64,000 nucleotides of DNA, taken from contig OY760175.1 of the NCBI GenBank assembly GCA_963663165.1, positions 5,792,001-5,856,000 of the forward strand, in the 5' to 3' direction. Positions 897-59,425 of the stretch are shown here, piece by piece. Source of the DNA: an uncultured Desulfospira sp. GTDB taxonomy: Bacteria; Desulfobacterota; Desulfobacteria; Desulfobacterales; Desulfobacteraceae. The position numbers and the translations under genes were made by a program. The notes under the pieces were generated by a model. The model made no database searches, was not told the DNA's origin, and saw only the letters and a program-made list of their open reading frames with translations. Within the stretch, counting starts at the first letter, position 1. Every line of letters begins with the position of its first letter.

Positions 897-3044
897 ATGG
901 TGAAGTTATGCACCGCTTTCTGGCTGGTGGTACTGGCCTGTCTTTGGGGTCCCGGGGTGTTAACGGCCATGGCCGATGATCCGGATATTGACGTGACTTA
1001 TATTGAAAGGCTGCCCAGATACGATTATGATGCAGATAAAAATAATCCCGAGCCGGGCGACACCGTCACCTTTAACGGGCATATCCGGTATTGGGGCCAT
1101 GAATCGCTTTCCGGGGCGGATTATGCCTGGTACCTGGATGATGATTTGGTGTATAGCGGCACCCTGACTGGTATGAGTGCAGGAGAGGAGCAAATCGTCA
1201 CTTATGAATGGACCTGGGAATCCGGCAGCCACCGGATCAAACTGATGGTTGATCCTGAGGACAAGCTTGACGAGGCAAGCGAAACCAACAATTCGGTAGA
1301 AGATCTGACCAATGCCCTGAGTGTCGGATTCTGGGTTGAACAGACGGTTTATGATTACTTTCACCAGTATCAAAAAGAGCTTGGGGACGGGGCCAACTCC
1401 TGGGAGGATTGGGCCCGGCGGCAGATTGCCCGGTGGAACCTCATGTGTGAAGAGGCAGTTTGGCCCACGTCTCCAAATGGTGTGATCGACCGTTTCCGGC
1501 TTGATAAAGTCGTGATCGTATCGGACGGTGCCCTGCCGCTGTCCTGGGGGGGGCTTGCGACCAACTATCCCAATGCCGACGACAAGACCGTGGACCTCAT
1601 GTGGGGTTTTCCTGCGACCTCGGACATGACCGACTTTTACGGCGATCACACATCCACTGAGGATGACAACGCCTTTTATATAGAAAAGTCCCTGCTTCAT
1701 GAACTCGGGCATGCCCGCTACCTGATCGATAATTACGGGTTTGATGTCCACAATACGTCAAGCCACCACGCGGTTCAGATTTATGAAGGCGATACCTATG
1801 TGGCCGGCAGCCATTATATGCCCTTTCTGGCATACGATGAGGTCCTGTATTACAACACCAGCGGCGGCGTTATGGAAGGGCCTTACGATTTTGCCTGGTC
1901 ACCCTATGAAGCGGCCGCGCTCAACCTCATTGCCGGCCGGCGGGCCACCTGCGGAAATTATAACGCCCCTTGCAATATCGGCGTGTTTTTGCAGGATCTG
2001 CCCGGAAACAATCACATCCTCATTGTGGACAAGGCCGGGGAGCCCATGCCGTTTGCCGGTGTGACCGTTTATAATGTTGAAAGCGGCTCAGGCTGGTACG
2101 GTAAAACCATTGACAATATACCGGATCAAACCTATACCGCCGATGCCGACGGGTACATTCACCTGCCCCGCAACCCCTTTAACCCCGGTGGGGACATCAT
2201 CCATGGCTATGGGCATGCCAATGGGACCATGATTCTGCGCATCGAATATGAAGATCATGTCTGGTACCGCTTCCAGGAAGTCACGGACTACAACATGGAA
2301 TACTGGAAGGGCAACACCGAGGATGCTTATTATACCGTTGCAACGGACCTGGTGCCCGAACAGGCCTGCCCGCCGGCCGACATGGCTGAAAATAATGCCC
2401 AGGACTGGGAAGGATGGGCTCAAGAGCCCATTGACTGGGACTCCTACTTTGAAAACGATACAACCCTTACGGTCTCAGGCGATGCTTCGGTTAAATTCGT
2501 TACCGATGGGGGATGGGAGACTTACCTGCGGTACCCCGGTGCCTATGAGGCCCATTGGGACCTGAGCGGTTGTGATTATCTTTATATCAGCTTTTACGCC
2601 GAAAATCCCAGCGACTATAATTTTCAGGAGGGTCCGAAAGTCCGCCTGGTGGACCAGGACGGGAATTATTATGAATACAATTTCTATGACAACGGGAACG
2701 TACAGACCCTGCTCAATGATGCGGTAGGCCAGTGGATCCACCTTGAAATTCCGCTGGATGCCCCTGAAAGTCGGGAATACGGCTGGGGCCGCAGCGCCAA
2801 AGGCACCCCCGATCTCACCGACATCCGCTATCTGGAGATCCATGCCGATACCTGGGACAGCGGCTTTATCCTGTGGGTTGATCAGGTCTATTTTGATCCA
2901 GCGCCGCCCTGCTGCCAGAGCGACCTGGACGGTGACGGTGACGTAGACGGCAAAGACCTGCAAATGCTTACGGCAGATCTTTCCAAAGTGACTTTGTCTG
3001 TGTTTGCACAAGAATTCGGAACTGAAGCCTGTTCAGGGCTTTAA
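897..3044 (+). CDS. Secreted multidomain protein: CARDB-like Ig domain, HExxH zinc-metallopeptidase-like domain, possible carbohydrate-binding domain, C-terminal dockerin/EF-hand-like motif
   Basis: Hydrophobic signal peptide ending AMA; DPEDKLDEASETNN CARDB-type end; LLHELGHARY; CQSDLDGDGDVDGKDL; RBS aggggg. Confidence 0.7.
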   Translation: MVKLCTAFWLVVLACLWGPGVLTAMADDPDIDVTYIERLPRYDYDADKNNPEPGDTVTFNGHIRYWGHESLSGADYAWYLDDDLVYSGTLTGMSAGEEQIVTYEWTWESGSHRIKLMVDPEDKLDEASETNNSVEDLTNALSVGFWVEQTVYDYFHQYQKELGDGANSWEDWARRQIARWNLMCEEAVWPTSPNGVIDRFRLDKVVIVSDGALPLSWGGLATNYPNADDKTVDLMWGFPATSDMTDFYGDHTSTEDDNAFYIEKSLLHELGHARYLIDNYGFDVHNTSSHHAVQIYEGDTYVAGSHYMPFLAYDEVLYYNTSGGVMEGPYDFAWSPYEAAALNLIAGRRATCGNYNAPCNIGVFLQDLPGNNHILIVDKAGEPMPFAGVTVYNVESGSGWYGKTIDNIPDQTYTADADGYIHLPRNPFNPGGDIIHGYGHANGTMILRIEYEDHVWYRFQEVTDYNMEYWKGNTEDAYYTVATDLVPEQACPPADMAENNAQDWEGWAQEPIDWDSYFENDTTLTVSGDASVKFVTDGGWETYLRYPGAYEAHWDLSGCDYLYISFYAENPSDYNFQEGPKVRLVDQDGNYYEYNFYDNGNVQTLLNDAVGQWIHLEIPLDAPESREYGWGRSAKGTPDLTDIRYLEIHADTWDSGFILWVDQVYFDPAPPCCQSDLDGDGDVDGKDLQMLTADLSKVTLSVFAQEFGTEACSGL

Positions 3045-3073: not shown

Positions 3074-3295
3074 TATAACGGCCACGGGCCGTCTTGGTTA
3101 TCCAACCAAGCACCGCCCACAACAAATATTGAAAGTCTTCTCAGGACCTTAGTGAGACTTTCTTATAAACGGCCACGGGCCACAAGCCCACAACGAATAA
3201 TGAAACTGAAGATACCAGCAACGGTAGACTATAAATTGGGCACCGCAGGTGCTTCGCCCTCTTGTCTCTTGTTTCTTGTCTCCAGTTTCTTATAA
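3074..3295 (-). repeat. Two-hairpin repeat array, units D (3164-3295) and B (3074-3167), reverse orientation
   Basis: Reverse complement matches units at 23544, 37605 and 57109; 3186-3295 is the reverse complement of 37604-37713. Confidence 0.9.
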
Positions 3296-3507
3296 ATTAG
3301 ATATCGTCCCCGGATTTTCAGCGGTTATCAGACGGCTTTGCCGGTGTTTTCAAGAATTTGCCGGTCTTTTGTCAGCAATTGGTTTTGGCTTACTGCGGCG
3401 GCCTGTCCCTTAACGGTGTTAAACTCCTTAGTGCCTGGTTATTTTTCCACCAGACACAGAATTTTCGTTCAGACACAAATTATGGTGTGACAGGTGAAGG
3501 GGGCTGT

Positions 3508-5109: not shown

Positions 5110-5200
5110 ATATGAAAGGCACCGCAACGTTCCGGCATTCTTTCATGTTGGTTGCGGGCAGGCCTGAAAATAAAGGTCAGGCTGGCCCATGGACCGTATA
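5110..5200 (+). repeat. Diverged single two-hairpin unit (type E)
   Basis: atatgaaag..ctttcatgttggttgcgggc..gcccatggaccgtata keeps the family linkers with different hairpin interiors. Confidence 0.7.
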
Positions 5201-9203: not shown

Positions 9204-9637
9204 AATGTGAAAATTGTTTCGTAAAGATGGCTTAGCAAATCTTTGTGCATCTCAAGATGTTAGTGAGACTTTCGTATAAAAAATTGAAGGAAATTGAGGA
9301 CAGCAGACAGCTGGCCGGAATGCGTAAACCCGAGGGCGTCGCAATATCCGGTCTCCGGGTTTCCTTCTTCCGGTCTCCATTCTTTTCTTTTCTAACCGCC
9401 TTTTTTATTTTATAATCGATTCAAATTGATCAGCATGTTCCCAAGAATGAATTAATATATAACAGGCATGTCCTGACGAACATGACAAATCATGAAAGCC
9501 GTGAAGGTCACCGAAACGGCAGCTCTGACGGCCTTCAGCCTAAACACCTTCAGTCTTTCATAAAAAACAGAATAAACGAATCATTCGCAAGTCGGAACCA
9601 TTTTCAAAAATACTCTTTTTGCCCGAAGGAAGAGACA

Positions 9638-23456: not shown

Positions 23457-23543
23457 CCATGATGGGAAACAAGTGAACTTTCGGGGGGGGATCGCTTCGC
23501 CGCACAAATCCTGCCGGTAATTGTCTGAGAATCCCACATATTT

Positions 23544-23746
23544 TATATGAAAGTCTCACTAACCTCTTGAGAAGACTTTCATTATTTGTTGTGGGCGGTG
23601 CTTGGTTGGATAACCAAGGCGGCCCGTGGCCGTTATATGAAATACTCAGCAACCTGTTGAGTTCTTTCAATATTTGTTGCGGGCAGTTCTTGGTTGGATA
23701 ACCAAGACGGCCCGTGGCCGTTATAGTGACGGTCACGGGCCGTCTT
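23544..23746 (+). repeat. Two-hairpin repeat array, units B (23544-23633) and A (23634-23725), plus an inverted end fragment (23728-23746)
   Basis: Each unit runs tatatgaaa...tttca-attatttgttgYgggc...cttggttggataaccaag...gcccgtggccgt. Confidence 0.9.
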
Positions 23747-37560: not shown

Positions 37561-37604
37561 TTTCTCAGTTAACAGGTGATTCTTTATAACGGCCGTGGCC
37601 ATTT

Positions 37605-37754
37605 TATAAGAAACTGGAGACAAGAAACAAGAGACAAGAGGGCGAAGCACCTGCGGTGCCCAATTTATAGTCTACCGTTGCTGGTATCTTCAGTTTCATT
37701 ATTCGTTGTGGGCGGTTCTTGGTTGGATAACCAAGGCGGCCCGTGGCCGTTATA
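37605..37754 (+). repeat. Single two-hairpin unit D with heptamer-containing insert, flanked by 11-bp direct repeat
   Basis: ttataagaaac at 37604 and 37750; family 3' half gttgtgggcggttcttggttggataaccaaggcggcccgtggccgt. Confidence 0.9.
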
Positions 37755-37787
37755 AGAAACCGATATTAAAATATCCCTGTTGAAGTT

Positions 37788-38474: not shown

Positions 38475-38773
38475 GATAGGTGTCGGATGCCGGGTTCCCT
38501 TGGAGGGCGCATCCGGTCTCCTTCTTCCGGTTTCCGGTCTCCCTCCGTTTCATTGGAGATAAAATACATTTTTTTAACTGCGGTTCCCCGGGGCGTCCAA
38601 ATCAAATTTCTGGCATATTGGTTTAAAAAAAGGTATACACAAAAATTTAGGTAATTCGGCTGAAGAGGGTCCGGCCCGGGTATTCATCCAAAGGGCCGTG
38701 CATCTTCAAATCCGCAATGGCTTTAATATTACAAATGTCTTGGGCGAAGTGGTTTGTCCCGGAGGAAAGAAGA

Positions 38774-39880: not shown

Positions 39881-39938
39881 ATGGGGAGACCCTAGACCGG
39901 AGGCTGGAGACTGGAAATGAGGGGCAGGGAAGAAAACA

Positions 39939-40835: not shown

Positions 40836-40890
40836 AAAGAGACCGGAGGGGCAAAGCCGAACCAAAGGTTATGTTTTGTAGGGGTAATTT

Positions 40891-40993
40891 TAATGTATAT
40901 TGTTGAGACTTGGGATATGGGACTTGGGGAGGCCGTGGATGCCGCAATCCCCAGGTCCCATATCCCAAGTCCCAAGTCCAATTTTTTGGAGAT
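40891..40993. repeat. Palindromic heptamer element, GGGACTT family (copy 2; diverged copies at 42368-42435 and 59172-59274)
   Basis: Near-identical to 35121-35230. Confidence 0.9.
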
Positions 40994-41058
40994 TATCCGT
41001 ACTCTTTTTTGGGGGGGTAGTCTTACAATCTTAATCTTTGAGGCAAGAATAGCCCGGG

Positions 41059-42291: not shown

Positions 42292-42532
42292 TGTTAGTCC
42301 CTCCAAATTTTTATCCTACAAACTGAATTATGATCACGGTTTGGATTAAATCAAGCGCTTAATTTATGGACTTGGGATATGGGACTTGGGACTTGGGTAC
42401 GCCACGGTTGCTGCAATTCCCAAGGCCATTTTATTAAATGTATGATCTCAAATACGGTTACCCGGCATATAAACCAGATGCGCTTGATTTTGTACCAGCC
42501 CTCGGCTATACTTTGATTCGTTAAACAAGTTC

Positions 42533-46315: not shown

Positions 46316-46329
46316 ATCAAATGTCTCTT

Positions 46330-46710
46330 TTACCATACGGCCTTGGCGTAAAAATCTAAAATGATGTTATCAGAGGTTACCAGTTCCATTTGTCTGGCGT
46401 CAGCACTGGTAACGATAACCCGGTCGGCTGGATCACGGTGGCCCCAGTCCAGGTTCAAAGAGTCCATCCATGTGTTTTCGTCAATGGGAAGGATGTGAAA
46501 ATGGTGAACCTGGTTGAGTTTGGAAATAAATTCTTCCAAGGGTATGGGAATATCCAGTTTGCCTTTTTTAATCTTGATTCCGATTTCCCAGATGCTGATG
46601 GAACTGATCAGAAAACCATCACTTTCTTTTATCTTTTGAACCGCTGTGGGAGATAACCGTTTCTTTTCAAAGGCATTGTACAACAAGGCGCATGTGTCCA
46701 GAAATATCAC
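46330..46710 (-). CDS. vapC: PIN-domain toxin (VapC)
   Basis: FLDT, SISIWEI, HRDPADR, TSD; GTG start overlapping the antitoxin stop (GTGA). Confidence 0.9.
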   Translation of the reverse strand: MIFLDTCALLYNAFEKKRLSPTAVQKIKESDGFLISSISIWEIGIKIKKGKLDIPIPLEEFISKLNQVHHFHILPIDENTWMDSLNLDWGHRDPADRVIVTSADARQMELVTSDNIILDFYAKAVW

Positions 46711-46940
46711 GCAAGATCTCCCCATTCCTCTTGAGTTCCCGCTTCAAGAGGTTCGGAATAGGTCATTTTGTTTTGATAGGGACCAAAAACATCATCAAAA
46801 GATTTCTTTTCTTTATAAGGGCTGATTTTTAATACAGGCTCATTATAGTTGAGTACAATCAATTCCTCGCCTGTCTCCTCGACCTCCCGGAAATAAGCGA
46901 GCATTTTTGCTTTTAAAACACTTTTTGTGACCGTTTTCAT
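46707..46940 (-). CDS. Phd/YefM-type antitoxin
   Basis: KSVLKAKMLAYFREVEETGEELIV..PV N-terminal Phd pattern; RBS ggagg; translationally coupled to the PIN gene. Confidence 0.85.
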   Translation of the reverse strand: MKTVTKSVLKAKMLAYFREVEETGEELIVLNYNEPVLKISPYKEKKSFDDVFGPYQNKMTYSEPLEAGTQEEWGDLA

Positions 46941-46949
46941 ATTGCCTCC

Positions 46950-46972
46950 GACTATAGTCCTAACCATGGTCA
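46950..46972. promoter_or_regulatory. Putative TA autorepression operator (two short palindromes)
   Basis: gactatagtc (46950-46959) and accatggt (46963-46970) immediately upstream of the antitoxin RBS. Confidence 0.55.
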
Positions 46973-46987
46973 TATTTTATGGCGTCA

Positions 46988-47617
46988 CTAAGGATTTGTC
47001 AATGAATCTTTAAACAGCCCGGCCAGGGTTTTGGCGGCCGCAAAGGGATCTGTGGCCGAGCAGATGGCCGATACCATGGCAATGGCATCGGCCCCGGCCC
47101 TGACAGTCGATTGTATGTTTTCTAAGTTCAGTCCGCCAATGGCCACCAGGGGAAGATGGGTTAGTGTCCGGATGGCTTCAAGTCCGTCAAGCCCCAGGGG
47201 CGCTTTGGCATCGGCTTTGGTCAGGGTGGGAAAGATGGGGCCGACCCCTAAGTAATCCACCCCGGTTCCTCTGGCGTTTTTTACATCTTCCAGGCTGCTC
47301 ACGGAAAGGCCGATAATTGCCTTGGGCCCTAAGAGCCTGCGGGCAATTTCAGGGGGCATATCGGACTGGCCCAAATGAACCCCGTGGGTATCTGCCGCCA
47401 GGGCAATATCCAGGCGGTCATTGATCAGCAGCGGGATATGGAAAGGTTCCAGAAGGGCTTTGAGCTTTAGGGCCCGGTCTAGAAAATCCCGGGTGGGGGC
47501 GGTTTTTTCCCTGAGCTGGACACAGCAGGCCCCGGCTTTGGCCGCCGCCTCAACCACGGATTCGAGGGGCCGGCCCAGGCAGGCCTTTTCGTCAGTGACC
47601 AGGTAAATTCCTTTCAT
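46988..47617 (-). CDS. thiE: Thiamine-phosphate synthase
   Basis: VQLREK, INDRLD, GVHLGQSD, PTLTK, VAIGG. Confidence 0.97.
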   Translation of the reverse strand: MKGIYLVTDEKACLGRPLESVVEAAAKAGACCVQLREKTAPTRDFLDRALKLKALLEPFHIPLLINDRLDIALAADTHGVHLGQSDMPPEIARRLLGPKAIIGLSVSSLEDVKNARGTGVDYLGVGPIFPTLTKADAKAPLGLDGLEAIRTLTHLPLVAIGGLNLENIQSTVRAGADAIAMVSAICSATDPFAAAKTLAGLFKDSLTNP

Positions 47618-47676
47618 GGCAGTATCCTTTAATTAAAGCCATTAGCTATTAGCCGTTAGTCTTTAGCCTCTATCGG

Positions 47677-48471
47677 CTAACAGCTAATGGCTGACAGCTC
47701 TTGCTCCGTTATATTATACAGGGCGTCAATAAAGTGCATTTGAAGGCTTCCAGGGCCCTTGGCGGTCCGGGCCGCCATTTCTCCGGCAATGCCCATGACG
47801 GCCATGGCATGGGCCGCGGCCCGTGAAGGGTCCGGGTTGACAGCGGCAAAGGCGGCGCAAAGGGCCGTGGCCGTGCATCCAAGACCTGTGACCCGGGGCA
47901 TCATGGCATGGCCGTTTTTAACGGTCAGGGTTTCCTGGCCGGTGACAATATAGTCGGTTTGTCCGGTAACACAGACCGTATTGCCAAGTTCAAGGCTTAA
48001 CGTCCTGGCGCTGTTGACCGCCGTATCCGAACCGCTGGTGGAGTCCACCCCTTTGGTGGCAATACCGTCTTTCAGCAGAGCCATGATTTCCGAGCCGTTT
48101 CCCCGGATGATAGCGGGCTTTATGTCCCGGATCAGGGACTGGGCGGTGGCGGTCCGGTAAGGGGTGGCCCCGGCCCCCACCGGGTCCAGGACAATGGGAA
48201 TGTTTTTTTTCTTTGCCGCTTGTCCGGCCTTGGTCATGGATGCCACCCAGGCGGCGTCCAGGGTGCCCATGTTGATGACCAGGGCGCCGGCCAGGCGGAC
48301 CATGTCCGCCACCTCATGCTCTGAATGGGCCATGACCGGCGAGGCCCCCAAGGCCAAGAGGGCATTGGCCGTATTGTTCATCACCACAAAATTGGTGATG
48401 TTGTGGACCAGGGGGGCCGTGGCCCGGATGGCCTCAATGTCTTTCCATATATCCGATGCCTGAATGCTCAT
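47677..48471 (-). CDS. thiM: Hydroxyethylthiazole kinase
   Basis: PLVHNITN, ANALLALGASPVMA, DPVG, IRGNGSEI, VTGLGC. Confidence 0.97.
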   Translation of the reverse strand: MSIQASDIWKDIEAIRATAPLVHNITNFVVMNNTANALLALGASPVMAHSEHEVADMVRLAGALVINMGTLDAAWVASMTKAGQAAKKKNIPIVLDPVGAGATPYRTATAQSLIRDIKPAIIRGNGSEIMALLKDGIATKGVDSTSGSDTAVNSARTLSLELGNTVCVTGQTDYIVTGQETLTVKNGHAMMPRVTGLGCTATALCAAFAAVNPDPSRAAAHAMAVMGIAGEMAARTAKGPGSLQMHFIDALYNITEQELSAISC

Positions 48472-48635
48472 AAGATATTTCCTTGATGGTTTAGGTGTTT
48501 CGGCTGAAGGGTTTCAAGTACCTTCTCTATCGCGATTCCTTCAGCCTTCAGCCTAAAAACCTTCAGTCTTTTTTATCTGTTAGCATCACCTTAAAGGCTA
48601 ACGGCTAAAGGCTAACAGCTGAAAGCTAAACGCTT

Positions 48636-49571
48636 TTACTTGCGCCATGTATGAATCAGTTCGGTAGCATCCACCGGCCCTTTAATCAGCCCATACTGAA
48701 GGGCAAAATCGGCAAAATCCTGCCATTTCCTCAAATCATGGCCGGTTTTTTCGGCAAAGTAGGGCCGGGTCAGGTCAAAGGCGGCCGTTTCGATTTCCTT
48801 ATCGGCCTGGGGAACGGCGGTTAAATACAGTTTCAGACATTGTTCAGGCTCGGCTTTGATCCGTTCAAACCCTTTTGCGATGGCCTTGACAAACCGGTGG
48901 AGCGCATACTGTTTTTCTTCAAGAATCTTGGCCCCGCATACAAAAATCAGTTCTTCATAATCGGGGATTCCGTATTTTTCCAGTTCAAAATACAGTCCTT
49001 TGTGGCCATGCTTGGCCATGCCCACGGTTTCATAGGTTTTAAAAGGGCCCATGATGGCGTCCACTTTGCCCGATACCAGGGAGGGCAGGATGGTGAAGCC
49101 CACATTGACCGGGGTGTAACCGGTGATGCCGTTAATGTCGGCAAAGGCTTTGAGCAAAATGTCCATCAGGCCCGGGACGGTATATCCGATTTTTTTATGG
49201 GACAGGTCAGCAGGGGATTTGATGTCGCTGTCCAGGTAGAGCAGGGTGGTCAAGGGGTGGCGCACCAGGGGGGCGACCACACGAAGCTTAAGCCCCTGGT
49301 CCGCGGCAATGATGGTCTGGGGCTGGTAGGACACGGCAAGATCCACGCTTCCGGCGGCGGCAAGCTTCAGTGCGTCCGAGGTTTCAGACGGGGTGATGAC
49401 ATCCACCTTGAGGCCATGAAATTTAAAGTATCCGGATTCCTGGGCCACATAAATGGGCATATGGTCCACGTTGGGGAACCAGTCCAGCATAATGGTGAGC
49501 CGATCTGCGGCCGATCCCGGGGATACAGCGGCCAGGACCGCCAGAATAATATAAAGCACCAGTTTTTTCAT
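48636..49571 (-). CDS. thiY: ABC substrate-binding protein, NMT1/THI5 family (ThiY-like)
   Basis: LDWFPNVDH, VSYQP, GIPDY motifs; signal peptide; operon context. Confidence 0.85.
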   Translation of the reverse strand: MKKLVLYIILAVLAAVSPGSAADRLTIMLDWFPNVDHMPIYVAQESGYFKFHGLKVDVITPSETSDALKLAAAGSVDLAVSYQPQTIIAADQGLKLRVVAPLVRHPLTTLLYLDSDIKSPADLSHKKIGYTVPGLMDILLKAFADINGITGYTPVNVGFTILPSLVSGKVDAIMGPFKTYETVGMAKHGHKGLYFELEKYGIPDYEELIFVCGAKILEEKQYALHRFVKAIAKGFERIKAEPEQCLKLYLTAVPQADKEIETAAFDLTRPYFAEKTGHDLRKWQDFADFALQYGLIKGPVDATELIHTWRK

Positions 49572-49582
49572 GATCGTTTCCT

Positions 49583-50323
49583 TTATGATTTCCAGTTAAT
49601 GATTTTTTTTTCCAACATTCCCACCAGGGTCCACATGGCCAGCCCCATGATGGTGAGGTAAAGAATGGCCGCAAACAAAAGATCCGTGGCCAGCCGGGCA
49701 TTGGACTGGATCATTAAAAATCCAAGCCCCTTCTGGGCCCCCACCCATTCGCCGATCACCGCCCCGATGGTGGCCACGGTTACCCCGACCTTAAGGCCTG
49801 AAAAAAACTGGGGCAGGGCCCAGGGCCAGTAAAGCAGGGTAAAGGTTTTAAAAAACGAGGCCCCCATGAGCCGGAACAGCACCCTGAACTCCGGGTCACA
49901 GTCTTTAAATCCCTGGAGCAGGCTGACGGTAATGGGAAAAAAGATGATGATCCAGGCCATGAAGACCTTGGAGGCCATGCCATACCCCAGCCAGACCACC
50001 AGCAGGGGGGCCAGGGCAAACACGGGAATGGCCTGGGAGGCCACCAGGAAAGGGGACAGCGCCTTTTCCAGGTTGGGTTTCGCAAACATGGCCAGGGCCA
50101 GGGGCAGGGCCGTTGCCACGGCAAATCCGATGCCAAGGACAATCTCGATAAAGGTTACCATGGCATGGGGAAAAAGAATAGGGAACTTTAATACGGCCGT
50201 GGTCAGAATCTGCCAGGGCGACGGCAGAATGAAAACCGGCACGGCCATCAGTTTAACCCAGATCTGCCAGATCCCCAGGATAAGGGCGATAATCCCCAAT
50301 GCCGTAAGGTTACTGCCTTTCAT
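49583..50323 (-). CDS. thiX: ABC permease (ThiX-like)
   Basis: FILPSP, SQAIP, GAVIGEWVGA..GLG; operon context. Confidence 0.85.
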   Translation of the reverse strand: MKGSNLTALGIIALILGIWQIWVKLMAVPVFILPSPWQILTTAVLKFPILFPHAMVTFIEIVLGIGFAVATALPLALAMFAKPNLEKALSPFLVASQAIPVFALAPLLVVWLGYGMASKVFMAWIIIFFPITVSLLQGFKDCDPEFRVLFRLMGASFFKTFTLLYWPWALPQFFSGLKVGVTVATIGAVIGEWVGAQKGLGFLMIQSNARLATDLLFAAILYLTIMGLAMWTLVGMLEKKIINWKS

Positions 50324-51056
50324 GGATCAGGTCTCCTTCCAGCCGGGACAGGCAGTATTCCTTGATGTCCATTAATTGCGGATCATTGAGTTTTCGGGGC
50401 TTGGGGGTGTTCAGCGGGATGGCCTGTTTGATTCTCATGGGCCTGGGGCTGAGCAGGTAAATTTCATCGGCCAGCACCAGGGCCTCGTCTATATCATGGG
50501 TGATCATGAGAATGGTTTTGCCAAACTCGGTCTGGAGCAGCAGCAGCAGGTTCTGCAGTCCCCTTCGGGTAATGGCGTCGAGAGCCGACAAGGGTTCGTC
50601 CAGAAACACCAGATCCCGGTCAAACATCAGGGTCCGGACCAGGGCGCACCGCTGGCGCATGCCCCCGGATACCTGGCCCGGCCGGTGGGATTCAAATCCT
50701 TCCAGGCCCAGGCGCCGGAACAGGTCCAGGGCCTTTTCCCGAAAGTCCCCGTTATTTTTTTTGACGGCTGATACCGGCAGCAGGGCATTGTCCAGTAAAG
50801 ACAGCCAGGGCAGCAACAGGTCCTTTTGCTGCATATAGGCGGCATGGGCCCCTAAGTGGGGCAGGGGCCGGCCCTGCCAGGAAATGGTCCCGCAATCCAG
50901 GCCCACCACACCGGTAAGGCCGTCAAACAGCGTGGATTTCCCGCAGCCCGAAGGACCCACCAGAACCTTGAACCGGCCCGGTTCAAGCTTAAGGTCCAGC
51001 CCGGAGAAAACCGGCTGGCCGTTAAATTGTTTTTCAAGCCCCAACACGTCGAGCAT
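50310..51056 (-). CDS. thiZ: ABC ATP-binding protein (ThiZ-like)
   Basis: GPSGCGKST, VSGGMRQR, LDEP, ITHD; first gene after the TPP riboswitch. Confidence 0.85.
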   Translation of the reverse strand: MLDVLGLEKQFNGQPVFSGLDLKLEPGRFKVLVGPSGCGKSTLFDGLTGVVGLDCGTISWQGRPLPHLGAHAAYMQQKDLLLPWLSLLDNALLPVSAVKKNNGDFREKALDLFRRLGLEGFESHRPGQVSGGMRQRCALVRTLMFDRDLVFLDEPLSALDAITRRGLQNLLLLLQTEFGKTILMITHDIDEALVLADEIYLLSPRPMRIKQAIPLNTPKPRKLNDPQLMDIKEYCLSRLEGDLIHERQ

Positions 51057-51166
51057 GCAGCAAAATCCTTAAAGAAGCGAACAGCTAACGGCTAATAGCT
51101 AACAGCTAAAGAAAAACCGATGATGCAAAAATCCGGATTGGAATATGAAAAGAAAATGCGGGGCCC

Positions 51167-51259
51167 GACTTTCCTACGCCAGAATAATCTGGATCAGGTT
51201 CCAAGGGTCGAAACTCTAACCAGTTTCCTCTCAGCCGGTGTTTGCCGGCTCCCCCAGTC
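51167..51259 (-). ncRNA. TPP riboswitch
   Basis: Minus strand gactgggggagcc..ggCTGAGA..gACCCttggaACCTGATCcagaTtATtctgGCGtAGGAAagtc, upstream of thi genes. Confidence 0.95.
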
Positions 51260-51287
51260 CGTTTTGCGGTTCATTAAAACGGGAAAA

Positions 51288-51317
51288 ACGGTATCACGGC
51301 CTCAAGCGGGCTGTCAA
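51288..51317 (-). promoter_or_regulatory. Sigma70-type promoter of the thi operon
   Basis: Minus strand TTGACA-N18-TACCGT with extended TG, about 30 nt upstream of the riboswitch. Confidence 0.6.
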
Positions 51318-51463
51318 CAAGAAACAAGAAACTGGAGACAAGAGACAAGAGACAAGAAACAGGAAACAAGAGACAAGAAACAAGAAACAAGAAACAGGAA
51401 ACAGGAAACAAGAGACAAGAAACAGGAAACAAGAGACAAGAAACAAGAAACTGGAAATAAGAG
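51317..51463. repeat. Heptamer tandem tract, 21 units of ACAAGAA/ACAAGAG/ACAGGAA
   Basis: Uninterrupted 7-bp period counted directly from the sequence. Confidence 0.95.
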
Positions 51464-51602
51464 TTTCAGTGCTGCGCACTGAAATTGCATTCGGTAGTCT
51501 TAAACAGTGGGAAAGTTACCTGTGATTGCCCTGATACTTTGCTTGACAAAAAGCGTCTTCCTATCCTACATGAAGTATACACATCGCTCATCGCTGGACT
51601 GC

Positions 51603-51650
51603 ATCGTGCTTGCAGATCGTGGAGAGATCGAACAGGTGCTGATCAACCTC
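51603..51650 (+). pseudogene. Short histidine-kinase N-box remnant
   Basis: Translates IVLADRGEIEQVLINL, like VVLADPTQLHQVFMNL in the kinase at 13042-15864; ends just before a long palindrome. Confidence 0.45.
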
Positions 51651-51657
51651 CAGGTCA

Positions 51658-51728
51658 GGGGTCAAACCTTGATTATGGCACTAGTAAGGGTCTTAGTGCC
51701 ATTAGTGCCATAATCAAGGTTTGACCCC
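51658..51728. repeat. Perfect 26-bp inverted repeat (REP/MITE-like)
   Basis: ggggtcaaaccttgattatggcacta (51658-51683) / tagtgccataatcaaggtttgacccc (51703-51728). Confidence 0.9.
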
Positions 51729-51784
51729 AGTTCCGGTAGCCCTAAAATTGAGCGCCCGTTTTTAAAGAAAATTTCACCGGCCCC

Positions 51785-51818
51785 AAAAAGCGGAAAGGGG
51801 CAGGCCAAGGCCTGCCCC
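51785..51818 (-). terminator. Probable intrinsic terminator of the porin gene
   Basis: Minus strand ggggcaggcc-tt-ggcctgcccc-tttccgcttttt. Confidence 0.6.
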
Positions 51819-51853
51819 GTAAAAGAAAAAGGGAAGCACAAAAAAGAGTTTCT

Positions 51854-53281
51854 TTAGAAGGTCAGCTCAATGGAAAAAGCCACTTTCCAGAAATCTTCCA
51901 CTGAACCATTGGCCGATTCGTTGTAATCGCCGTCTTCGTCAAACATGATGTATCCGAGTTCAGTAGCGAATACCAGGTTTTTCATGACTTGGTATTCTGA
52001 ATTAAAGTTGATCTCTATCAGGCTTTCGTCCTCGTTCATCAGGGTGTCGTCCGGAGACTGGAAAATGCTGTCATCCGCCGTTCCCTGGGCGTACATGATC
52101 TGGAATTCATGGGAAAGTTTTTCACTGGTTTTGATGTCCTTGAGCTTGAACCCGACAGCCCACATGGAAACGGCATAGGTCGTGTCATGGGAGTCAAACA
52201 TGTTGTCGTTGAACCGGCTGCCCCCGAAAAAGGACGTGGTATAGAGGGGGGCGCTGATCAGGACAGGCATCATGTCAATGTCGTTGTCATTGGCATCCGG
52301 ACCGTTCCCGTAGAATGCAAACAGTTCCGGCGTACACCATCCTGCCTTGTAAGTAACGACCAAATCAGTGAAAAACCCTGAGACAGTGATGTCCTCCCCG
52401 GTTGTTTCCCATTCCATGTTTCCGTAGGTGGCGCTTGCCGCAACATTCATGGGATCAATGGGGGAAAATTCTGCCTTCATGCCCAGATAATAGGCCGTAA
52501 CCCCGTCTGTGGGAGTGGTATTGGCAAGCCCGTTGGTACCGGCCAGAAGTGCCGGATAGTCAAAATAGGCATAAGTCCAGTGGCTGGCGGCATTGGCAAT
52601 GACATCTTCTTGAATATAGGCATAAGCTGCCCAGGGGGTTAGCTTGAAGCCTGCCATGCCCAGAGGGGCCTTGATAAGCAACAAGTCTGCCTGGTCATCG
52701 GTGTTGGATTCGGTGTCATCATATAGATCAGCCATCCTGAACCAGGCCGCTTCTATACCGGCAGATTCCCCGATAGGGGCTGAAAAAACAACCCCGGCAG
52801 GGACCTCATACATGAGAAGGCTGCCGTAACCGATTTCATGAAAGTTGTAAAACTGGGAGCCGATTTTAAAGTGCATGCCTGAAACAGTGGTGTAATCAAT
52901 ATACAATTCGTCCAGTTCAAAGATCAAATCCCCGTCCTCTTCTCCGCCTACCACGGCATCTGTGGAGCCAAAATAACCCCCGGTAGAGCCTTCACCAATC
53001 TGAAAACTGGCCACTCCTTTTAACCGTTCATTGATGATCCACTTGGTTCTCAGGCCCAGTTCTCGGGTGGCATCAAAATCCGCATCATCCCCAGTATCAT
53101 AATCATCCACAAAATCCAGGTACTGGGTGGCCCCGAAAGAGGCCTTGATGGCCCCGGTAATCTCAAATTCGCCCATGTCTCCAGCCTTGAATTTCATGGC
53201 TTGGGCAAAAGAAGCCGTTAAAATAATCACCAACAGGGTAAGGGCCTGAAAAAAGCGTTTCTTTCCAATCTTTTTTTTCAT
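51854..53281 (-). CDS. Outer-membrane porin (deltaproteobacterial homotrimeric porin-like)
   Basis: Signal peptide ending AQA, acidic beta-strand pattern, LKGVASFQIG, TPELFAFYGNG, terminal Phe. Confidence 0.75.
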   Translation of the reverse strand: MKKKIGKKRFFQALTLLVIILTASFAQAMKFKAGDMGEFEITGAIKASFGATQYLDFVDDYDTGDDADFDATRELGLRTKWIINERLKGVASFQIGEGSTGGYFGSTDAVVGGEEDGDLIFELDELYIDYTTVSGMHFKIGSQFYNFHEIGYGSLLMYEVPAGVVFSAPIGESAGIEAAWFRMADLYDDTESNTDDQADLLLIKAPLGMAGFKLTPWAAYAYIQEDVIANAASHWTYAYFDYPALLAGTNGLANTTPTDGVTAYYLGMKAEFSPIDPMNVAASATYGNMEWETTGEDITVSGFFTDLVVTYKAGWCTPELFAFYGNGPDANDNDIDMMPVLISAPLYTTSFFGGSRFNDNMFDSHDTTYAVSMWAVGFKLKDIKTSEKLSHEFQIMYAQGTADDSIFQSPDDTLMNEDESLIEINFNSEYQVMKNLVFATELGYIMFDEDGDYNESANGSVEDFWKVAFSIELTF

Positions 53282-53354
53282 CTTTTTCTCCTCATAAATC
53301 AGTTAAGTTAAAGGTGACAGCAATGGGTGCTTCCCGCTTACGATTTATGAAAAG

Positions 53355-53370
53355 AGCAATTGATGTGCCG
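53355..53370 (-). promoter_or_regulatory. Sigma54 (-24/-12) promoter of the porin gene
   Basis: Minus strand cGGCACatcaaTTGCt (GG-N10-GC) 74 bp upstream of the ATG. Confidence 0.7.
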
Positions 53371-53756
53371 GAAAGATGCCGGTCTGGCCTTCAAAATGGC
53401 GTTTAGCTTGCTTGATGCCTTTAAAATCAGGGCTGAACCATTATTAATAATTTCAAGGATTCTTAGAAACCCATTCAATTTAATAAAAAAACAGCTCAGG
53501 TAGCGTTATGGTAACGTTATCAACAGTAAAGGGTGACGGTGATACGAGGCTATTATTCGTACGATCCATTCGGAATCGAGATTGAGCTTTATGCCAGTTA
53601 TATGGCGATTGCCTTAGTGGCCGTCTGGCCGACTGACCTCTGGAATGGTTTTTGCTTTTTGCTTATTGTTTTACTGAATTTTTTAAATGATTAGAGAAGA
53701 ATTGTTTTTAAGCTTTGGATCCGGCCGGTATGGCAGGGTCCGATAAAAGGACAGAA

Positions 53757-56700
53757 GTGAGTTTAAATATCAAAAACAGATTAAAAATCCATGAAAATGA
53801 AGCCGGGCTTTTTTGGGGGGCTCTGGGCCTGATTTTTCTAATTCGGCTTGGAAGCCTTATCTTTAATAATTATACGCTGACCGTTTTTCTTAAAAGATTT
53901 GGTGTTGAGTCCCTTCCCATATTATATATGGTGAACCCTTTCATTACCCTTATTCTGGTTGGCAAGCTGGCCATGCTCAAGGAAAAGGTCTCTGCATACG
54001 ACCGCCTTTTGGGTATGCTGATGATTTCGTCTTTATTTGTATTGGCCTTTTGGGGCGGGGCCCTGGGAAAATGGGCCTGGATATACCCGGTTCTGTTCGT
54101 GGTTAAGGTTCAGTTCGAGGCCCTGCTCGGAATCCTTTTCTGGAATCTTTGCAATGATCTGTTCAATTTCAATCAGTCCAAAAGGCTTTTCCCGTTGATT
54201 ACGGCCGGTGGTGTTATAGGGGATTTAGCGGGAAATCTGATTTCCGTTGTTTTTTCATGGACCGGGAACATGAGCTATATGATGCCGGTTTACAGTTTGA
54301 TTCTTTTTTTGGGGGTCTACATTGTCCGGACTCTGGCCCCAAGATTTCCTTTGAAAGTAGTCCGTTCCCCTGGGCACTTTCAGGAAAAAGGTGGGCTTTC
54401 CCGGGTAGCCGCCGTGAAAACCCTGGCGAAAAAAGCCTCTTTAATTAAAGTAGTTGTGGTATTGACCTTTTGTGCCAATGTTATTTTACCGGTCATGAAT
54501 TATCAGTTCAATGCCGCTATTGATAACAGCATTGCCGGAGAAGAGGGGATGCTTCTTTTTTTGGGAACATTCAGAGGCATCATGAGCCTGGTTTCCTTGG
54601 TGCTGCTCTTTTTTTCCGGCCGGGTATATGAAAAATGGAGTATCCCTTCAGCCATGCTGTTTCACCCGGCCAATTACCTGTTTGTTTTCCTGGCCTTTTT
54701 GTTCCGGTTTGATTTGGTTTCAGCCATATATGCCAGATTTTCAACCAATGTGATTCGTACTACGTTTAATCAGCCGGTGAATAATATGCTGATCGGCATT
54801 TTTCCGGATCAGGTTAGGTCCTTGATCCGCCCGTTCCTGAGAGGCGTGGTTGCAAGGGCCGGGCTGATTACCGGATCAGGGCTGGTTCTTTTATTCAAGG
54901 AGTGGGTGCCGGCTGCATACCTATCCCTTATGGTCCTCCCGTTTGTTTTTTTTTGGATAGGGACGGTCGGTTATATGAAAATGAGATATTCAGGTCTCAT
55001 TGTCGAGCTTCTGTCATCAGACACCCTGGACCTTAAGTCCATAGAAAAATCTATTTTGAACAAGCTGTTCACCGAAAAAAAAGCCCAAAAGAAATTATTG
55101 GAAAACCTATCCGGATCCAAGGGAAAGGATGCCGTTCTTCATGCACGGGTCCTTCACTATGCCGGTGCAAAGGAACTGGATGAGTATATCCTTTCAATTT
55201 TGGAGAAACAGGACCGGGATACGAAAATCCGCCTGCTTGGTTTTTTGTCCGGAACCCGGGAGCGCAAAACCTTTGATGTTTTGAAGCGAATGATCAATGT
55301 CAGTGACAGGGATCTGACTTTGGCAATGATTCATACCGTAAAACTTTTAGACAAGGATGAGTGCCGGGACTTTTTTGAAACCCTGAAAAACCGTTGCCGG
55401 AATAACAGACTGGATACCGAATCCACCATGGAAATCCGGTCTTATACTCAGGCGTGTCTTTTGTTAAAGGGCGGGGAAAAAAGCCGAGTACAAATAGAAC
55501 GCCAATTAAATGGAACCGGCACGGAAGGCATTTATGCCGGCATCATCGCAGCAGGCGAATCCAAAGACCCCATCCATGGGGCGGTGCTGGCCGGGCTGTT
55601 AACCCGGGTAGAGGAATCCTTTCTAACGGCTGCTGTTTTAAAGGCCCTGCATCAGATTGATTACAACGAGTTGAACCGGACAGCCCGGCCTTTTCTGGAT
55701 CATCCGGATACAAACGTTCGCCTGGCTGCTCTGGCAGGCATTCAGGTGGACAGTGAAAATATGCAGCGCAAGGTGTTGGCCATGACAGGGGATGCTGCCC
55801 GGTCTGTCCGGGATCTGGCCGTAAAAAAGATTGAAACCGCCGAGTATTGCAGCAGCATGCTTTTATTTGAATTTTTAAATCGCCCGTCAAGACTGATCCG
55901 CGAAGGGGTTTTCAGAATTCTCAATACCCTTGATATAAAGAAGCCGGAACTCCATGCTTTTTTTAAAGCAGAAATGGCGGCGGCCAAAAGAAAGCTCCTT
56001 GATTTTATGACCTTGTCCCGCCTGATGGAGACCCCTTCCGGGAACCTGTTGAAGTGCCATTTAGAGCAGGCCCAGGCCGGTCATATCAAAACCATCCTCC
56101 GGGTGGCTTCATTGACCGACCATTCCGGCCGGATGCGAATCATTGCTAAAAATATTTTTTCAGGAGATTCCAGAAAAAAGGCCAATGCATTGGAGGCCCT
56201 TCAAAGTACCCTGATAACGCCCCTGGCCGGGGAACTGGTCGTTTTTCTGGAAAATTCAAGGCCAGAAAGCCGGTTTGAGCAATTGTTGGACAAAGGCTTG
56301 ATCCAGAAGACGGACAGTCCACCGGAAATGGTCCTTGACCAACTATCCCTGAACCATGACCGGGTAACTGCCAGGCTATCCAGGGACGTGGCGGCAGAAC
56401 TGGGCTTAGGCCGGGAATCTGAAGATAAAAGTTCCCCCCTTTTCATGGATACAGGGGAGAATAACGGCAAAAAAGGCCGTAACCTTGAAACATCCAAAAG
56501 GAAACACCTGAAAGCAGAGAAACACATGAAAGAAGAAATGAGCTTACAAGAAAAAATTATAGCCATCCAGAAAATAGATATTTTTAAAACCCTTGATGTA
56601 AACCAACTGGCCGCAGTCAGCGAAATTGCCCGGGAAAAAGTGTTCAAGCCCGGTATGGTTCTGTTTAATGAAAATGAGGCAGCAGACACCATGTATGTCT

Positions 56701-57014
56701 GTATCCAGGGCCGGCTTTCTATTTCCAGAAACCAGATTGAGGTAGGGGTGTTTAAGGAAGGCGACAGCTTTGGCATGAGTGCTTTTTTTGTTGACAGCAA
56801 ACGGCTGATTACGTGTAAAGCTGAGGCATCGACCCGGGTTTTGGAAATTCATAAGCATGAATTTGAAGAGATGCTCATGGAATATCCCCAGATTTCATAT
56901 GAAATTGCCCGGATCAGCACCCGAAGGATTCAACGGCTCCTCAAGCAAATTAAAAAAGGGGCCGCCCAGGAAGAATTGTTAAAAAATTTCTTCAGTCATG
57001 AGGAGCTGGTCTGA
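53757..57014 (+). CDS. NTT/TLC-like membrane domain fused to HEAT-like repeats and a C-terminal cNMP-binding domain
   Basis: FLKRFGVESLP, FW..NDLF..QSKRLFPLI..GG motifs; helical repeats (FLDHPDTNVRLAAL); Crp-type IDIFKTL..LFNENEAADTMY..G.SFG; GTG 53757. Confidence 0.75.
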   Translation: MSLNIKNRLKIHENEAGLFWGALGLIFLIRLGSLIFNNYTLTVFLKRFGVESLPILYMVNPFITLILVGKLAMLKEKVSAYDRLLGMLMISSLFVLAFWGGALGKWAWIYPVLFVVKVQFEALLGILFWNLCNDLFNFNQSKRLFPLITAGGVIGDLAGNLISVVFSWTGNMSYMMPVYSLILFLGVYIVRTLAPRFPLKVVRSPGHFQEKGGLSRVAAVKTLAKKASLIKVVVVLTFCANVILPVMNYQFNAAIDNSIAGEEGMLLFLGTFRGIMSLVSLVLLFFSGRVYEKWSIPSAMLFHPANYLFVFLAFLFRFDLVSAIYARFSTNVIRTTFNQPVNNMLIGIFPDQVRSLIRPFLRGVVARAGLITGSGLVLLFKEWVPAAYLSLMVLPFVFFWIGTVGYMKMRYSGLIVELLSSDTLDLKSIEKSILNKLFTEKKAQKKLLENLSGSKGKDAVLHARVLHYAGAKELDEYILSILEKQDRDTKIRLLGFLSGTRERKTFDVLKRMINVSDRDLTLAMIHTVKLLDKDECRDFFETLKNRCRNNRLDTESTMEIRSYTQACLLLKGGEKSRVQIERQLNGTGTEGIYAGIIAAGESKDPIHGAVLAGLLTRVEESFLTAAVLKALHQIDYNELNRTARPFLDHPDTNVRLAALAGIQVDSENMQRKVLAMTGDAARSVRDLAVKKIETAEYCSSMLLFEFLNRPSRLIREGVFRILNTLDIKKPELHAFFKAEMAAAKRKLLDFMTLSRLMETPSGNLLKCHLEQAQAGHIKTILRVASLTDHSGRMRIIAKNIFSGDSRKKANALEALQSTLITPLAGELVVFLENSRPESRFEQLLDKGLIQKTDSPPEMVLDQLSLNHDRVTARLSRDVAAELGLGRESEDKSSPLFMDTGENNGKKGRNLETSKRKHLKAEKHMKEEMSLQEKIIAIQKIDIFKTLDVNQLAAVSEIAREKVFKPGMVLFNENEAADTMYVCIQGRLSISRNQIEVGVFKEGDSFGMSAFFVDSKRLITCKAEASTRVLEIHKHEFEEMLMEYPQISYEIARISTRRIQRLLKQIKKGAAQEELLKNFFSHEELV

Positions 57015-57020
57015 AGTTTT

Positions 57021-57289
57021 TATATGAAAGACTCAGCAACCTGTTGAGTTCTTTCAATATTTGTTGTGGGCGGCTCTTGGTTGGATAACCAAGGCGGCCC
57101 GTGGCCGTTATATGAAAGTCTCACTAACGTCCTGAGAAGACTTTCATTATTCGTTGTGGGCGGTTCTTGGTTGGATAACCAAGGCGGCCCGTGGCCGTTT
57201 ATATGAAAGAATCTGCAAGCTGCTGTAATTCTTTCATGCTTTGTTGTGGGCCGAACCGGATTAACAATCCAATCGGCCCGTGGCCGTTA
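57021..57289 (+). repeat. Two-hairpin repeat array, units A (57021-57108), B (57109-57199), C (57200-57289)
   Basis: Three head-to-tail 88-91-nt units with constant linkers and variable hairpins. Confidence 0.92.
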
Positions 57290-57738
57290 GTGAACAGCAG
57301 AAAATAAAAATGACGCCAAGGGTAGACAGACTTATAAGTCCGGTATTAATGGATTCCCATTTCCCGGCCCCATTGGGGCTCCAGAAGACACCTTCCCAGG
57401 ACCCTAAATATAATATCTCAGGTGGTGTGGCGTTGTTAAATTTTATCAAAATATACAAAGCACATATCAAGCCCGCAAAAGCCTGTCAATCAGTGGCCAT
57501 TTTAAAATATAAAACGGCGTTTTTTAGTGGATTTCATTTCTCGCATTGAAAAAAACAACCCGGGTTGGTATAGGATAGCTGTGTCGCAAAAAAGTTGTAA
57601 AAGGGGCTGGCACTTATCTGATATTCCCCCTTCTCCAATACTGTGAGTTCAAATTTACAGTCAGCCGCCGCCGGACCGTAAGCCGATGAGAAGTTAAGTT
57701 GCGTTAACTGATCAATTAAATATAAAGGGGAAAGAAAA

Positions 57739-59088: not shown

Positions 59089-59425
59089 TGAAAAGATCTC
59101 CGTATGTTAAGGATGTTGGGAAATTGCCCCCTACCATACATCATTGAGGCCCCTTGGGCAAAATTTTTTATAGACCTGGGACTTGGGATATGGGACTTGG
59201 GGACGCCACGGAAACTGCAAGCCCCAAGTCCCAAGTCCCAGGTCCCAGGTCCCAGGTCCCAAGTCCATTTTATTGGATTAACCTGATTCCCCATTCCGGG
59301 GGTGGATTGTTCTTTTAACGCGATTGCCCCGGCAAAAGCGCTTCCCGGCCTTGATAAAAAAGACAGCCGGTGGTATGCCCCAACCATGGCACCGGTAAAA
59401 ACGGTTTTTAAGATAAAGGCTTTTC

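Follow-up and report, generated by a model that had tools for sequence, protein, structure and literature searches.

Gene-less two-hairpin units in an uncultured Desulfospira genome are probably miniature derivatives of an IS110-family insertion sequence

We analysed a 64,000-nt stretch of DNA (hereafter the window) from an uncultured Desulfospira sp., which covers positions 5792001-5856000 of a single 6.74-Mb contig; the source genome is labelled G000. The window carries a family of short hairpin-forming units, three of which (A, B and C) follow one another directly behind the open reading frame (ORF) 53715..57014, the first beginning 3 nt past its stop codon. A D-B array lies 33 nt downstream of ORF 897..3044 (+), and a B-A array, a solo D unit and a solo E unit occupy the other loci; limits re-derived from the position rulers gave nine units at five window loci together with three partial units (Table 1). 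A sequence-only reading of the window had proposed these units as an undescribed mobile cassette or structured-RNA system. The comparisons reported here suggest that they are probably gene-less miniature derivatives of an RNA-guided, IS1111-like insertion sequence (IS) of the IS110 family, similar to miniature inverted-repeat transposable elements, or MITEs, but without terminal inverted repeats.

All window units share the scaffold TATAWGAAA-(hairpin 1)-TTTCA-linker-GTTGYGGGC-(hairpin 2)-GCCCRTGGCCGT, as read on the strand used in the sequence-only reading (unit orientation); the opposite strand is called the IS orientation. Units A, B and C fold as two hairpins with z scores of -5.7, -4.9 and -5.1, and none of 200 shuffles was as stable; the folding of E (z -1.7) and D (z -2.75) is weaker. 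A third, 5-bp mini-hairpin (CGGyC-CRT-GxCCG) stands at the extreme 3' end of the unit, with perfect pairing in five stem variants (CGGC/GCCG, CCGT/ACGG, CGGT/ACCG, CAGC/GCTG and CGGG/CCCG). One unit variant, found at 17 places in G000 and also in the congener G001, has the loop of this mini-hairpin swapped for an extra small hairpin (GGTTTCTGCCCTTTAGGGTAT). The T-run preceding ATATGAAAG differs in length between copies, and the unit ends TTATATGAAAG and GGCCCGTGGCCG are not inverted repeats, only a 2-nt core being common to them.

The family is spread over the whole genome. A regular expression for hairpin 2 found 144 copies in G000, and a hidden Markov model (HMM) built from seven of the nine window units, the two long D-type units being excluded, gave 311 matches at 243 loci (184 single, 50 double and 9 triple), which together make up about 26 kb (0.4%) of the 6.7-Mb genome. 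Units lie on a single strand, that is, head to tail, at 238 of the 243 loci, and strands are mixed at five. The types of hairpin 1 are discrete and reused: regular expressions on both strands counted about 50 D, 34 A and 12 C, and type B was the commonest in the tally of HMM array loci, in which D-containing arrays are undercounted because the HMM misses the left half of D-type units. Two-unit arrays have the order A-B in seven cases and B-A in three. Identical twins elsewhere in the genome were found for 54 of 253 full-length units (17 classes), and unit B of the A-B-C array has two more identical 90-nt copies. In co-directional spacers, as placed by crude ORF calls, the IS orientation runs in gene sense for 93 units and against it for 38, with 55 units in divergent spacers, 28 in convergent spacers and 24 inside ORF calls; unit starts often fall within tens of bases of a stop codon. 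The positions of the nine units and three fragments, the common scaffold, the lack of terminal inverted repeats and the recurrence of hairpin-1 types in both orders are as the sequence-only reading had described them.

The ends of the units recur on a full-length element of the same genome. This element, here called ISx, is a 1744-bp IS110-family IS (e.g. G000:C1:4366462-4368205), against 87-150 nt and no transposase gene for the units. G000 has three full copies: two are intact and 100% identical, and in the third (G000:C1:4960275 onward) ~1.9 kb of other DNA splits the element close to its right end. A left end without the rest of the element, the fourth, stands at G000:C1:4913761. The 419-aa ISx protein has both the DEDD (RuvC-like) N-terminal domain (PF01548, 82.7 bits) and the Transposase_20 domain (PF02371, 58.9 bits), and it scores 237.9 bits against the family model NF033542 'IS110 family RNA-guided transposase' (cut-off 140). 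Written in the IS orientation, with a caret at the junction, the left end of ISx reads TATAA^CCCCCATGTCCTAGCGGACACAACGAAGCATGAAAC and that of a reverse-complemented unit (short hairpin-2 form) TATAA^CGGCCACGGGCCACAAGCCCACAACGAATAATGAAAC; the right ends read GTGTTTCATATAAAA and GAGACTTTCATATAAAA, respectively. ISx and units have in common the left end TATAAC-N17/18-CACAACGAA-NN-ATGAAAC and the right-end motif TTTCATATAAAA. A unit in the IS orientation accordingly consists of a left part (TATAA^C-NNNN-CAyG, a GC hairpin and CACAACGAA-NN-ATGAAA), a short variable filler that gives types A to E, and a right part (TTTCATAT-A(n)). On these motifs hairpin 2 is the left-end hairpin of the IS, and hairpin 1 its two subterminal inverted repeats (ATGAAAs/sTTTCAT; in ISx ATGAAAC/GTTTCAT), juxtaposed with a short filler between them. 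Outside the units, a regular expression for the left end matched 15 places in 6.74 Mb, five of them ISx left ends, and of five spans of 250-6000 nt from a left to a right end in G000, the three without an intervening left end were the ISx copies. A search for a full-length element with unit ends, in which a 5' and a 3' unit end would enclose a gene in the unit orientation, found none. By its ends, ISx is the closest autonomous relative of the units; as their helper it is a candidate.

Homologues of ISx with 59-90% amino acid identity were found in seven genomes: G004, G017, G014, G039, G005 (six copies), G034 and G021 (broken). Among eight loci, G000 included, the left end was readable in six and the right-end motif in seven (that of G017 carries one substitution; at G034 no right-end motif was seen). 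The left end of the homologues, (T/A)A(T/G)AA^C..CATG-yCC-loop-GGr-CACAAC.AAG.ATGAAAC, contains a hairpin with compensatory changes (TGTCC/GGACA, TGCCC/GGGCA, TGCC/GGCA), and their right end is GTGTTTCATAT followed by 3-6 A, a run as variable as in the units. In G005, from a related genus, reverse-complemented units form a head-to-tail array that contains an IS copy in register; the left end of this copy is one more variant among the local unit-type left ends. G013, from another genus, has at least 42 copies (167 candidates) that match ISx nucleotides 1-40 at 85-95% identity; the four copies read are gene-less, ~270 nt long and have the right end TTTTCATATAAAAA, and no PF01548 match was found in that genome. 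These ~270-nt elements (loci L078-L081) carry long palindromic cargo.

We compared filled and empty sites between congeners. Seven of the 41 genomes searched have a match to the unit family, G000 included. Of these, G001 is unit-rich (41 scored matches, 325 first-look candidates), and five more genomes of the same family (G005, G013, G019, G021 and G022) have diverged unit forms; the family was not found in the congener G002 (0/8 candidates). The window has a syntenic counterpart in G001 at about 89-93% identity (the two congeners are ~91% identical), and 400 kb of G001 were compared with G000 in both directions. Seven sites were filled in one congener and empty in the other, with exact boundaries: four filled in G000 (5815544, the B-A array of the window, 5863257, 5957242 and 6059939) and three filled in G001 (G001:C1:2526371, 2551902 with two units, and 2574894). 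The empty site has the form N-TT-A and the filled one N-TT-(T)nATATGAAAG...GNCSG-TT-A, or, in the IS orientation, LT-AA-RT and LT-AA-(unit)-AA-RT; five or six of the seven sites fit without an added assumption. Target duplications of TA or TTA were ruled out by the same junctions. At the B-A site the whole array is missing from G001, and the empty site there holds the relic of a unit 3' end that adjoins the array in the window, so this relic predates the array. Two alignable orthologous units have drifted, with 98/116 (unit E plus 15 nt of flank on each side, G000 against G001) and 102/117 aligned columns identical. Set against the identical twins within G000, this drift points to unit activity after the species split, or to gene conversion. 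Contigs from four DNA runs over window positions 37450-57400 break at repeats.

The DNA beside the units shows what they insert next to. In 178 genomic flanks the positions after ...CCG were T (100%), T (95%), A (88%), T or G (55% and 30%), T or A (58% and 34%) and N; positions +7 and +8 were 74-79% purine, and +9 and +10 were A in 49-50%. [quoted passage not shown] Since the unit end mimics the preferred target, head-to-tail arrays can form in any order, A-B as well as B-A. The T-run at internal junctions is 2 long in 39/65 and 3 long in 15/65 cases, and averages 3.8 in solo units (n=119) and 5.2 in the first units of arrays (n=52), a pattern that fits insertion at the TAT-AA-A of a unit end already in place, which predicts a run of 2 at internal junctions and a shift of surplus A to the outer end. 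Left-end subfamilies differ in what follows them. Behind ends of the standard type stand a unit in 45 cases, TTATA in 31, TTAGT in 24 and TTATT in 17, and behind c-type ends TTAGT in 12/12 and never another unit; c-type ends thus occur only at ACTAA^ sites, which is why C stands last in the A-B-C array. The loop of B-type hairpin 1 likewise contains ACTAA^C, and it is exactly at this sequence that three inverted units are nested. From these counts we infer a model of insertion at a 2-nt core, TT in the unit orientation and AA in the IS orientation.

The mechanism that we propose runs as follows. A DEDD recombinase and a guide RNA, the latter from the non-coding region downstream of the transposase gene, would be supplied in trans by a full-length element and would excise the unit as a circle. 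The circle would be re-inserted by conservative recombination at the 2-nt core, as described for IS110-family elements, and the core would then stand at both ends. In the unit orientation N-TT-A would become N-TT-(T)ATATGAAAG...GNCSG-TT-A, and in the IS orientation LT-AA-RT would become LT-AA-(left end ... CATATA)-AA-RT. The predicted target for unit insertion is TTTCATATAA-N, and the left half of the preferred target, TTTCnTATAA^, is a degenerate copy of the element's right end. A resident right end (CATAT-AA-A) is therefore an ideal target, on which newcomers of any type would stack head to tail.

A candidate for the guide RNA is the 371-nt non-coding region after the ISx transposase gene. 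Across eight homologues this region has a conserved outer stem, an internal loop and an inner hairpin, six pairs of which show compensatory changes; the covariation of the outer stem is a by-eye reading of the homologue sequences, as RNAalifold caught the inner hairpin only, with the 3' part misaligned. The loop holds same-sense copies of CACAACGAA and CATATAAAAC, and the matching unit motifs, TTyGTTGTG (199/253) and TATAWGAAA (202/253), are among the most conserved parts of the units. An RNA from this region may thus guide the recombination. The ISx loci gave no Rfam match.

Several observations weigh against a derivation from an ISx-like element. G001 has at least as many unit candidates as G000, and yet neither the ISx protein nor PF01548 nor ISx DNA finds a match there, so that its units are orphans or something else moves them. 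Co-occurrence is loose, an ISx homologue being present in 3/7 unit-bearing genomes and in 5/34 others, where the latter are genomes without units by the unit query used. Unit left ends begin with CGGCCACG or variants of it, ISx with CCCCCATG; on account of this difference the guide RNA of ISx may fail to recognise units as donors, and a relative now lost may be the true helper. The left ends that the unit HMM picks out in six IS homologues are weak matches (E 0.16-0.68 in 28 kb), although in the correct position and orientation, and the homology of units and ISx hence rests on motif architecture and context and not on one strong score. Several sites have T/A-runs of 7-8, longer than the model predicts, the left flank of window site 23541 is too diverged to align between the genomes, and each of the seven polymorphisms may reflect insertion or precise excision. 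We judge it unlikely that the units are more than passive hitch-hikers of one ISx lineage. What points towards it is that left-end subfamilies have different strict targets (c-type 12/12 at ACTAA), that the covarying palindrome at the terminus of unit left ends is absent from the autonomous IS, and that the complete genomes of G001 (unit-rich) and G013 (MITE-rich) show no IS110-family transposase. If the units were more than that, several guide RNAs or helpers might have an extrachromosomal source, such as IS carried transiently on plasmids or phages, or the terminal hairpin might be recognised by a second route of mobilisation; unit arrays would then be self-renewing landing pads for RNA-guided recombinases.

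The alternative that survives best, to which we give a small chance, is that the units are independent repeats, similar to repetitive extragenic palindromes (REPs), which ISx prefers as a target, and that their likeness to IS ends comes from unit halves captured at insertion. REPs are the targets of IS621 and ISPpu9, and QMITE2 is that of IS1111. IS110/IS1111 elements are described as targeting repeated palindromes (PMC12288879; PMC5896051), the IS of G005 lies within unit arrays, and G001 has units with no IS found. Against capture, the 1744 bp that are 100% identical between ISx copies include the unit-like ends, and the outer flanks of these copies are unrelated sequences and not units. The left end is moreover kept in G004, G014, G039 and G034 and the right-end motif in G004, G014, G039 and G017, in all of which the unit query found nothing, and the ISx-specific left-end hairpin occurs on the gene-less elements of G013 at 88-95% identity. 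A derivative can also be a target, and the data show both.

Stable folding raises the question of a structured-RNA gene or cis-element (small RNA, terminator or stabiliser) that spread by duplication and selection and not by transposition. The hairpins (z about -5), the covarying 3' mini-hairpin, the gene-relative orientation bias of 93 to 38 from crude ORF calls and the frequent start within tens of bases of a stop codon would all agree with this. Searches for such a function found little: Rfam gave no match to the units at gathering or relaxed thresholds (in the window at gathering threshold a thiamine pyrophosphate (TPP) riboswitch only; at relaxed threshold over 56900-57400 chance-level matches only, E >= 0.79), no promoter-like site was found, and terminator-like matches numbered 2 against 0.8 expected. 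Orthologous units drift like neutral DNA, as in the 98/116 columns of unit E, and exact presence/absence with a 2-nt core together with IS end homology would be unexpected for an RNA gene. We therefore regard this explanation as very improbable, and the structured-RNA system of the sequence-only reading finds no backing in Rfam; a secondary effect of the units on transcripts may exist as a side effect.

Slightly less probable still is single-strand movement by an HUH Y1 enzyme, the units then being REP/BIME (bacterial interspersed mosaic element) repeats of a REP-associated tyrosine transposase (RAYT) or mini-elements derived from IS200/IS605 (PATE-like, after palindrome-associated transposable elements), with no target duplication. 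Units without terminal inverted repeats, with hairpins at both ends and with insertion beside a 4-5-nt motif would suit such movement, and G000 has 14 Y1_Tnp matches, several of them RAYT-like in size. However, a unit lies within 3 kb at only 3/13 Y1 loci, which is about chance, and no Y1 locus has units on both of its sides. The two replichores show no strand bias (92+/74- in one and 74+/71- in the other, with origin and terminus placed from GC skew only), units lie head to tail and not as inverted REP pairs, and the ends of a three-copy IS200-like element are unrelated to those of the units. This element (592 bp; L001-L003, one at G000:C1:804854-805445) has its own hairpin ends, and at one copy a second, longer Y1-like ORF (252 aa) comes next.

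Integron-like gene-less cassettes, recombined by a tyrosine integrase at G^TT, come last and have a negligible chance: the junction CCG^TTATAT resembles a G^TTRRRY core and the short gene-less arrays resemble cassette arrays, but the units are dispersed over 243 loci, mostly single, and not in one array beside attI/intI (intI itself was not searched for), they have no inverse core (RYYYAAC) to pair with the 3' core, a G precedes TT at the left junction in only 4/7 polymorphic sites, and the junctions of the filled and empty sites rule the model out. Two further candidates were dropped. Poly(A)-type retroposition had been considered because the A-run varies; the run is variable in autonomous IS copies as well, and the 2-nt core model fits the lengths. 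A classical DDE-transposon MITE would have terminal inverted repeats and a target duplication of fixed length; the units have no such repeats, and their ends share only a 2-nt core.

Several proposals of the sequence-only reading can be assessed on these data. Individual movement of units, and the comparison of orthologous empty and filled sites suggested as its check, agree with the seven presence/absence sites, and insertion at the end of a resident unit agrees with the T-run and flank counts. For the enzyme encoded elsewhere, three candidates had been named: an IS110 type is likely, HUH/RAYT failed on Y1 proximity, strand bias and ends, and a tyrosine recombinase was judged from the dispersal over 243 loci, with no search for intI. 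As to a gene family repeatedly flanked by units, none of the 4 IS110-type and 14 Y1_Tnp matches in G000 has units closer than chance.

The features of the window are collected in Table 1. Besides the units, the window holds other repeats. The heptamers of the tandem array beside the TPP riboswitch are also the cargo of D-type units (37608-37639 and 3260-3291). A second repeat family consists of GGGACTT/GGGATAT heptamers with a long palindrome around GGCCGTGGATGCCGCAA and occurs in G001 too; a third consists of heptamer-like repeats (GGAGACCGG / GGAAACCGG) on both strands and is sometimes joined to the hairpin GGGGCGATTCATGAATCGCCCC (5712-5738, 29811-29878). The stretch of about 51374-57521, with the 1099-aa ORF in front of unit A, has no syntenic match in G001, where its flanks fall into two regions separated by about 290 kb.

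Table 1 Units, unit fragments and other repeats and features of the window (positions in the window; ^ marks a junction)
Feature	Position	Strand	Remarks
Unit A, first in A-B-C array	57017..57107	+	5-T run 57017-57021; hairpin 1 type A; standard hairpin 2/3
Unit B of A-B-C array	57108..57197	+	Internal junction CCG^TT^ATATG
Unit C of A-B-C array	57198..57286 (to 57288 with core TT 57287-57288)	+	c-type left end (IS orientation), then AGT
Unit B of B-A array	23541..23632	+	
Unit A of B-A array	23633..23720 (to 23722 with core TT 23721-23722)	+	
Relic of unit 3' end (GTGACGGTCACGGGCCGTC), partial unit	23724..23746	-	Opposite orientation to B-A array
Unit D of D-B array	3170..3296	-	Hairpin 1 long, with heptamers as cargo; hairpin 2 in its short 'm' form
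Unit B of D-B array	3079..3169 (from 3077 with core TT 3077-3078)	-	
Solo unit D	37602..37749 (to 37751 with core TT 37750-37751)	+	Standard hairpin 2
Fragment TTATAACGGCCGTGGCCA, partial unit	37584..37601	.	Terminal mini-hairpin remnant abutting D unit; orientation ambiguous because nearly palindromic
Unit E	5110..5196	+	Old diverged copy; also at orthologous G001 site
Truncated unit, 5' part only in unit orientation (= IS right end), partial unit	9250..9284	-	On + strand ...GTTAGTGAGACTTTCGTATAAAAAA
Second repeat family, four copies	35133-35230, 40903-40993, 42368-42462, 59173-59266		
Third repeat family	5640-5684, 9346-9390, 15946-15990, 29622-29666, 38365-38409		
TPP riboswitch	51154-51265	-	Rfam RF00059, 70.4 bits against gathering 54.3
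Heptamer tandem array	51288-51476		AAGAAAC / AAGAGAC / CAGGAAA; beside TPP riboswitch
GCTAACA/GCTAATG heptamer runs	47637-47705, 48587-48640, 51073-51127		Three intergenic places

If the units derive from an ISx-like element, a striking repeat landscape is explained as the work of one RNA-guided IS family. About 300 natural donor-only substrates with their landing sites would then make the donor and target rules of an IS1111-like recombinase readable, namely AA as the core and, on the left, a target mimicking the right end, and a high-copy, self-targeting family of this kind could be useful for the study and engineering of bridge/seek-RNA recombinases. Many genes have units right behind them; in annotation the units should be treated as mobile DNA and masked, and calls of small RNAs or ORFs on them avoided. 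A literature search with three unit motifs returned unrelated primer matches only. Gene-less IS110-family elements are scarcely documented in the literature; one described family was found, MITEPpu9, to which we return below.

Among known systems, REP/BIME repeats and REPINs (REP doublets forming hairpins) with their RAYTs are high-copy extragenic hairpin repeats in mosaic clusters that have no transposase of their own, and in these respects the units are like them. REPs are 20-40-nt palindromes with a GTAG head, arranged in inverted pairs and linked to a flanking Y1 gene, whereas the units show no such GTAG-headed palindromes, no inverted pairing and no flanking Y1 gene. QMITE2 of Coxiella burnetii is a repeat that serves as a hot spot for IS1111 insertion (PMC5896051). 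As in the case of the units and ISx, a family of small repeats occurs joined to an IS of the IS1111 type; as described there, however, QMITE2 has terminal inverted repeats and 7-11-nt direct repeats and does not stem from IS1111 ends, whereas the units share the ends of the IS.

Elements of the IS1111 type move the IS, or cargo flanked by IS ends, by means of the transposase and a seekRNA, and the subgroup has a long downstream non-coding region, subterminal repeats of 11-13 bp and left and right extensions of 7 and 3 bp, respectively (PMC11187229). On the features given there, ISx agrees in its DEDD transposase, in the 371-nt downstream non-coding region, in having subterminal inverted repeats, in short stretches of the non-coding region that match target and ends, and in the right extension ATA, 3 nt before the core. 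It departs in its subterminal repeats ATGAAACAC/GTGTTTCAT, which are 9-10 bp and not 11-13 bp long, and in the left repeat, which lies 33 nt from the end, behind a hairpin, and not 7. On these domain and end features ISx may belong with IS1111 or with IS110, and it is called IS1111-like here in that sense.

The closest known element to the units is MITEPpu9 with ISPpu9, and the proposal of an undescribed cassette has to be given up: an IS110-family IS of the same genome has ends that match those of the units, a kind of match that the sequence-only reading had itself named as refuting, and MITEPpu9 sets a precedent (PMC12288879). As described there, MITEPpu9 (ssr9 module) of the IS110-family element ISPpu9 in Pseudomonas putida KT2440 is gene-less with IS-like left and right ends, both elements have an invariant AG dinucleotide at both ends, and MITEPpu9 forms minicircles and tandem copies and is thought to be moved by the transposase in trans (PMC12288879). 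MITEPpu9 and the units are alike in their IS110-type ends, in a dinucleotide at both ends (AG in the one, AA/TT in the other) and in having some copies in tandem and some directly beside the IS. They differ in that MITEPpu9 carries a small RNA gene and has 8 copies, whereas the ~90-nt units carry short filler only, number about 311 and are known here from sequence alone. ISPpu9, in the same account, targets REP sequences; the target of the units mimics their own end, and mixed-type arrays are common (59/243 loci).

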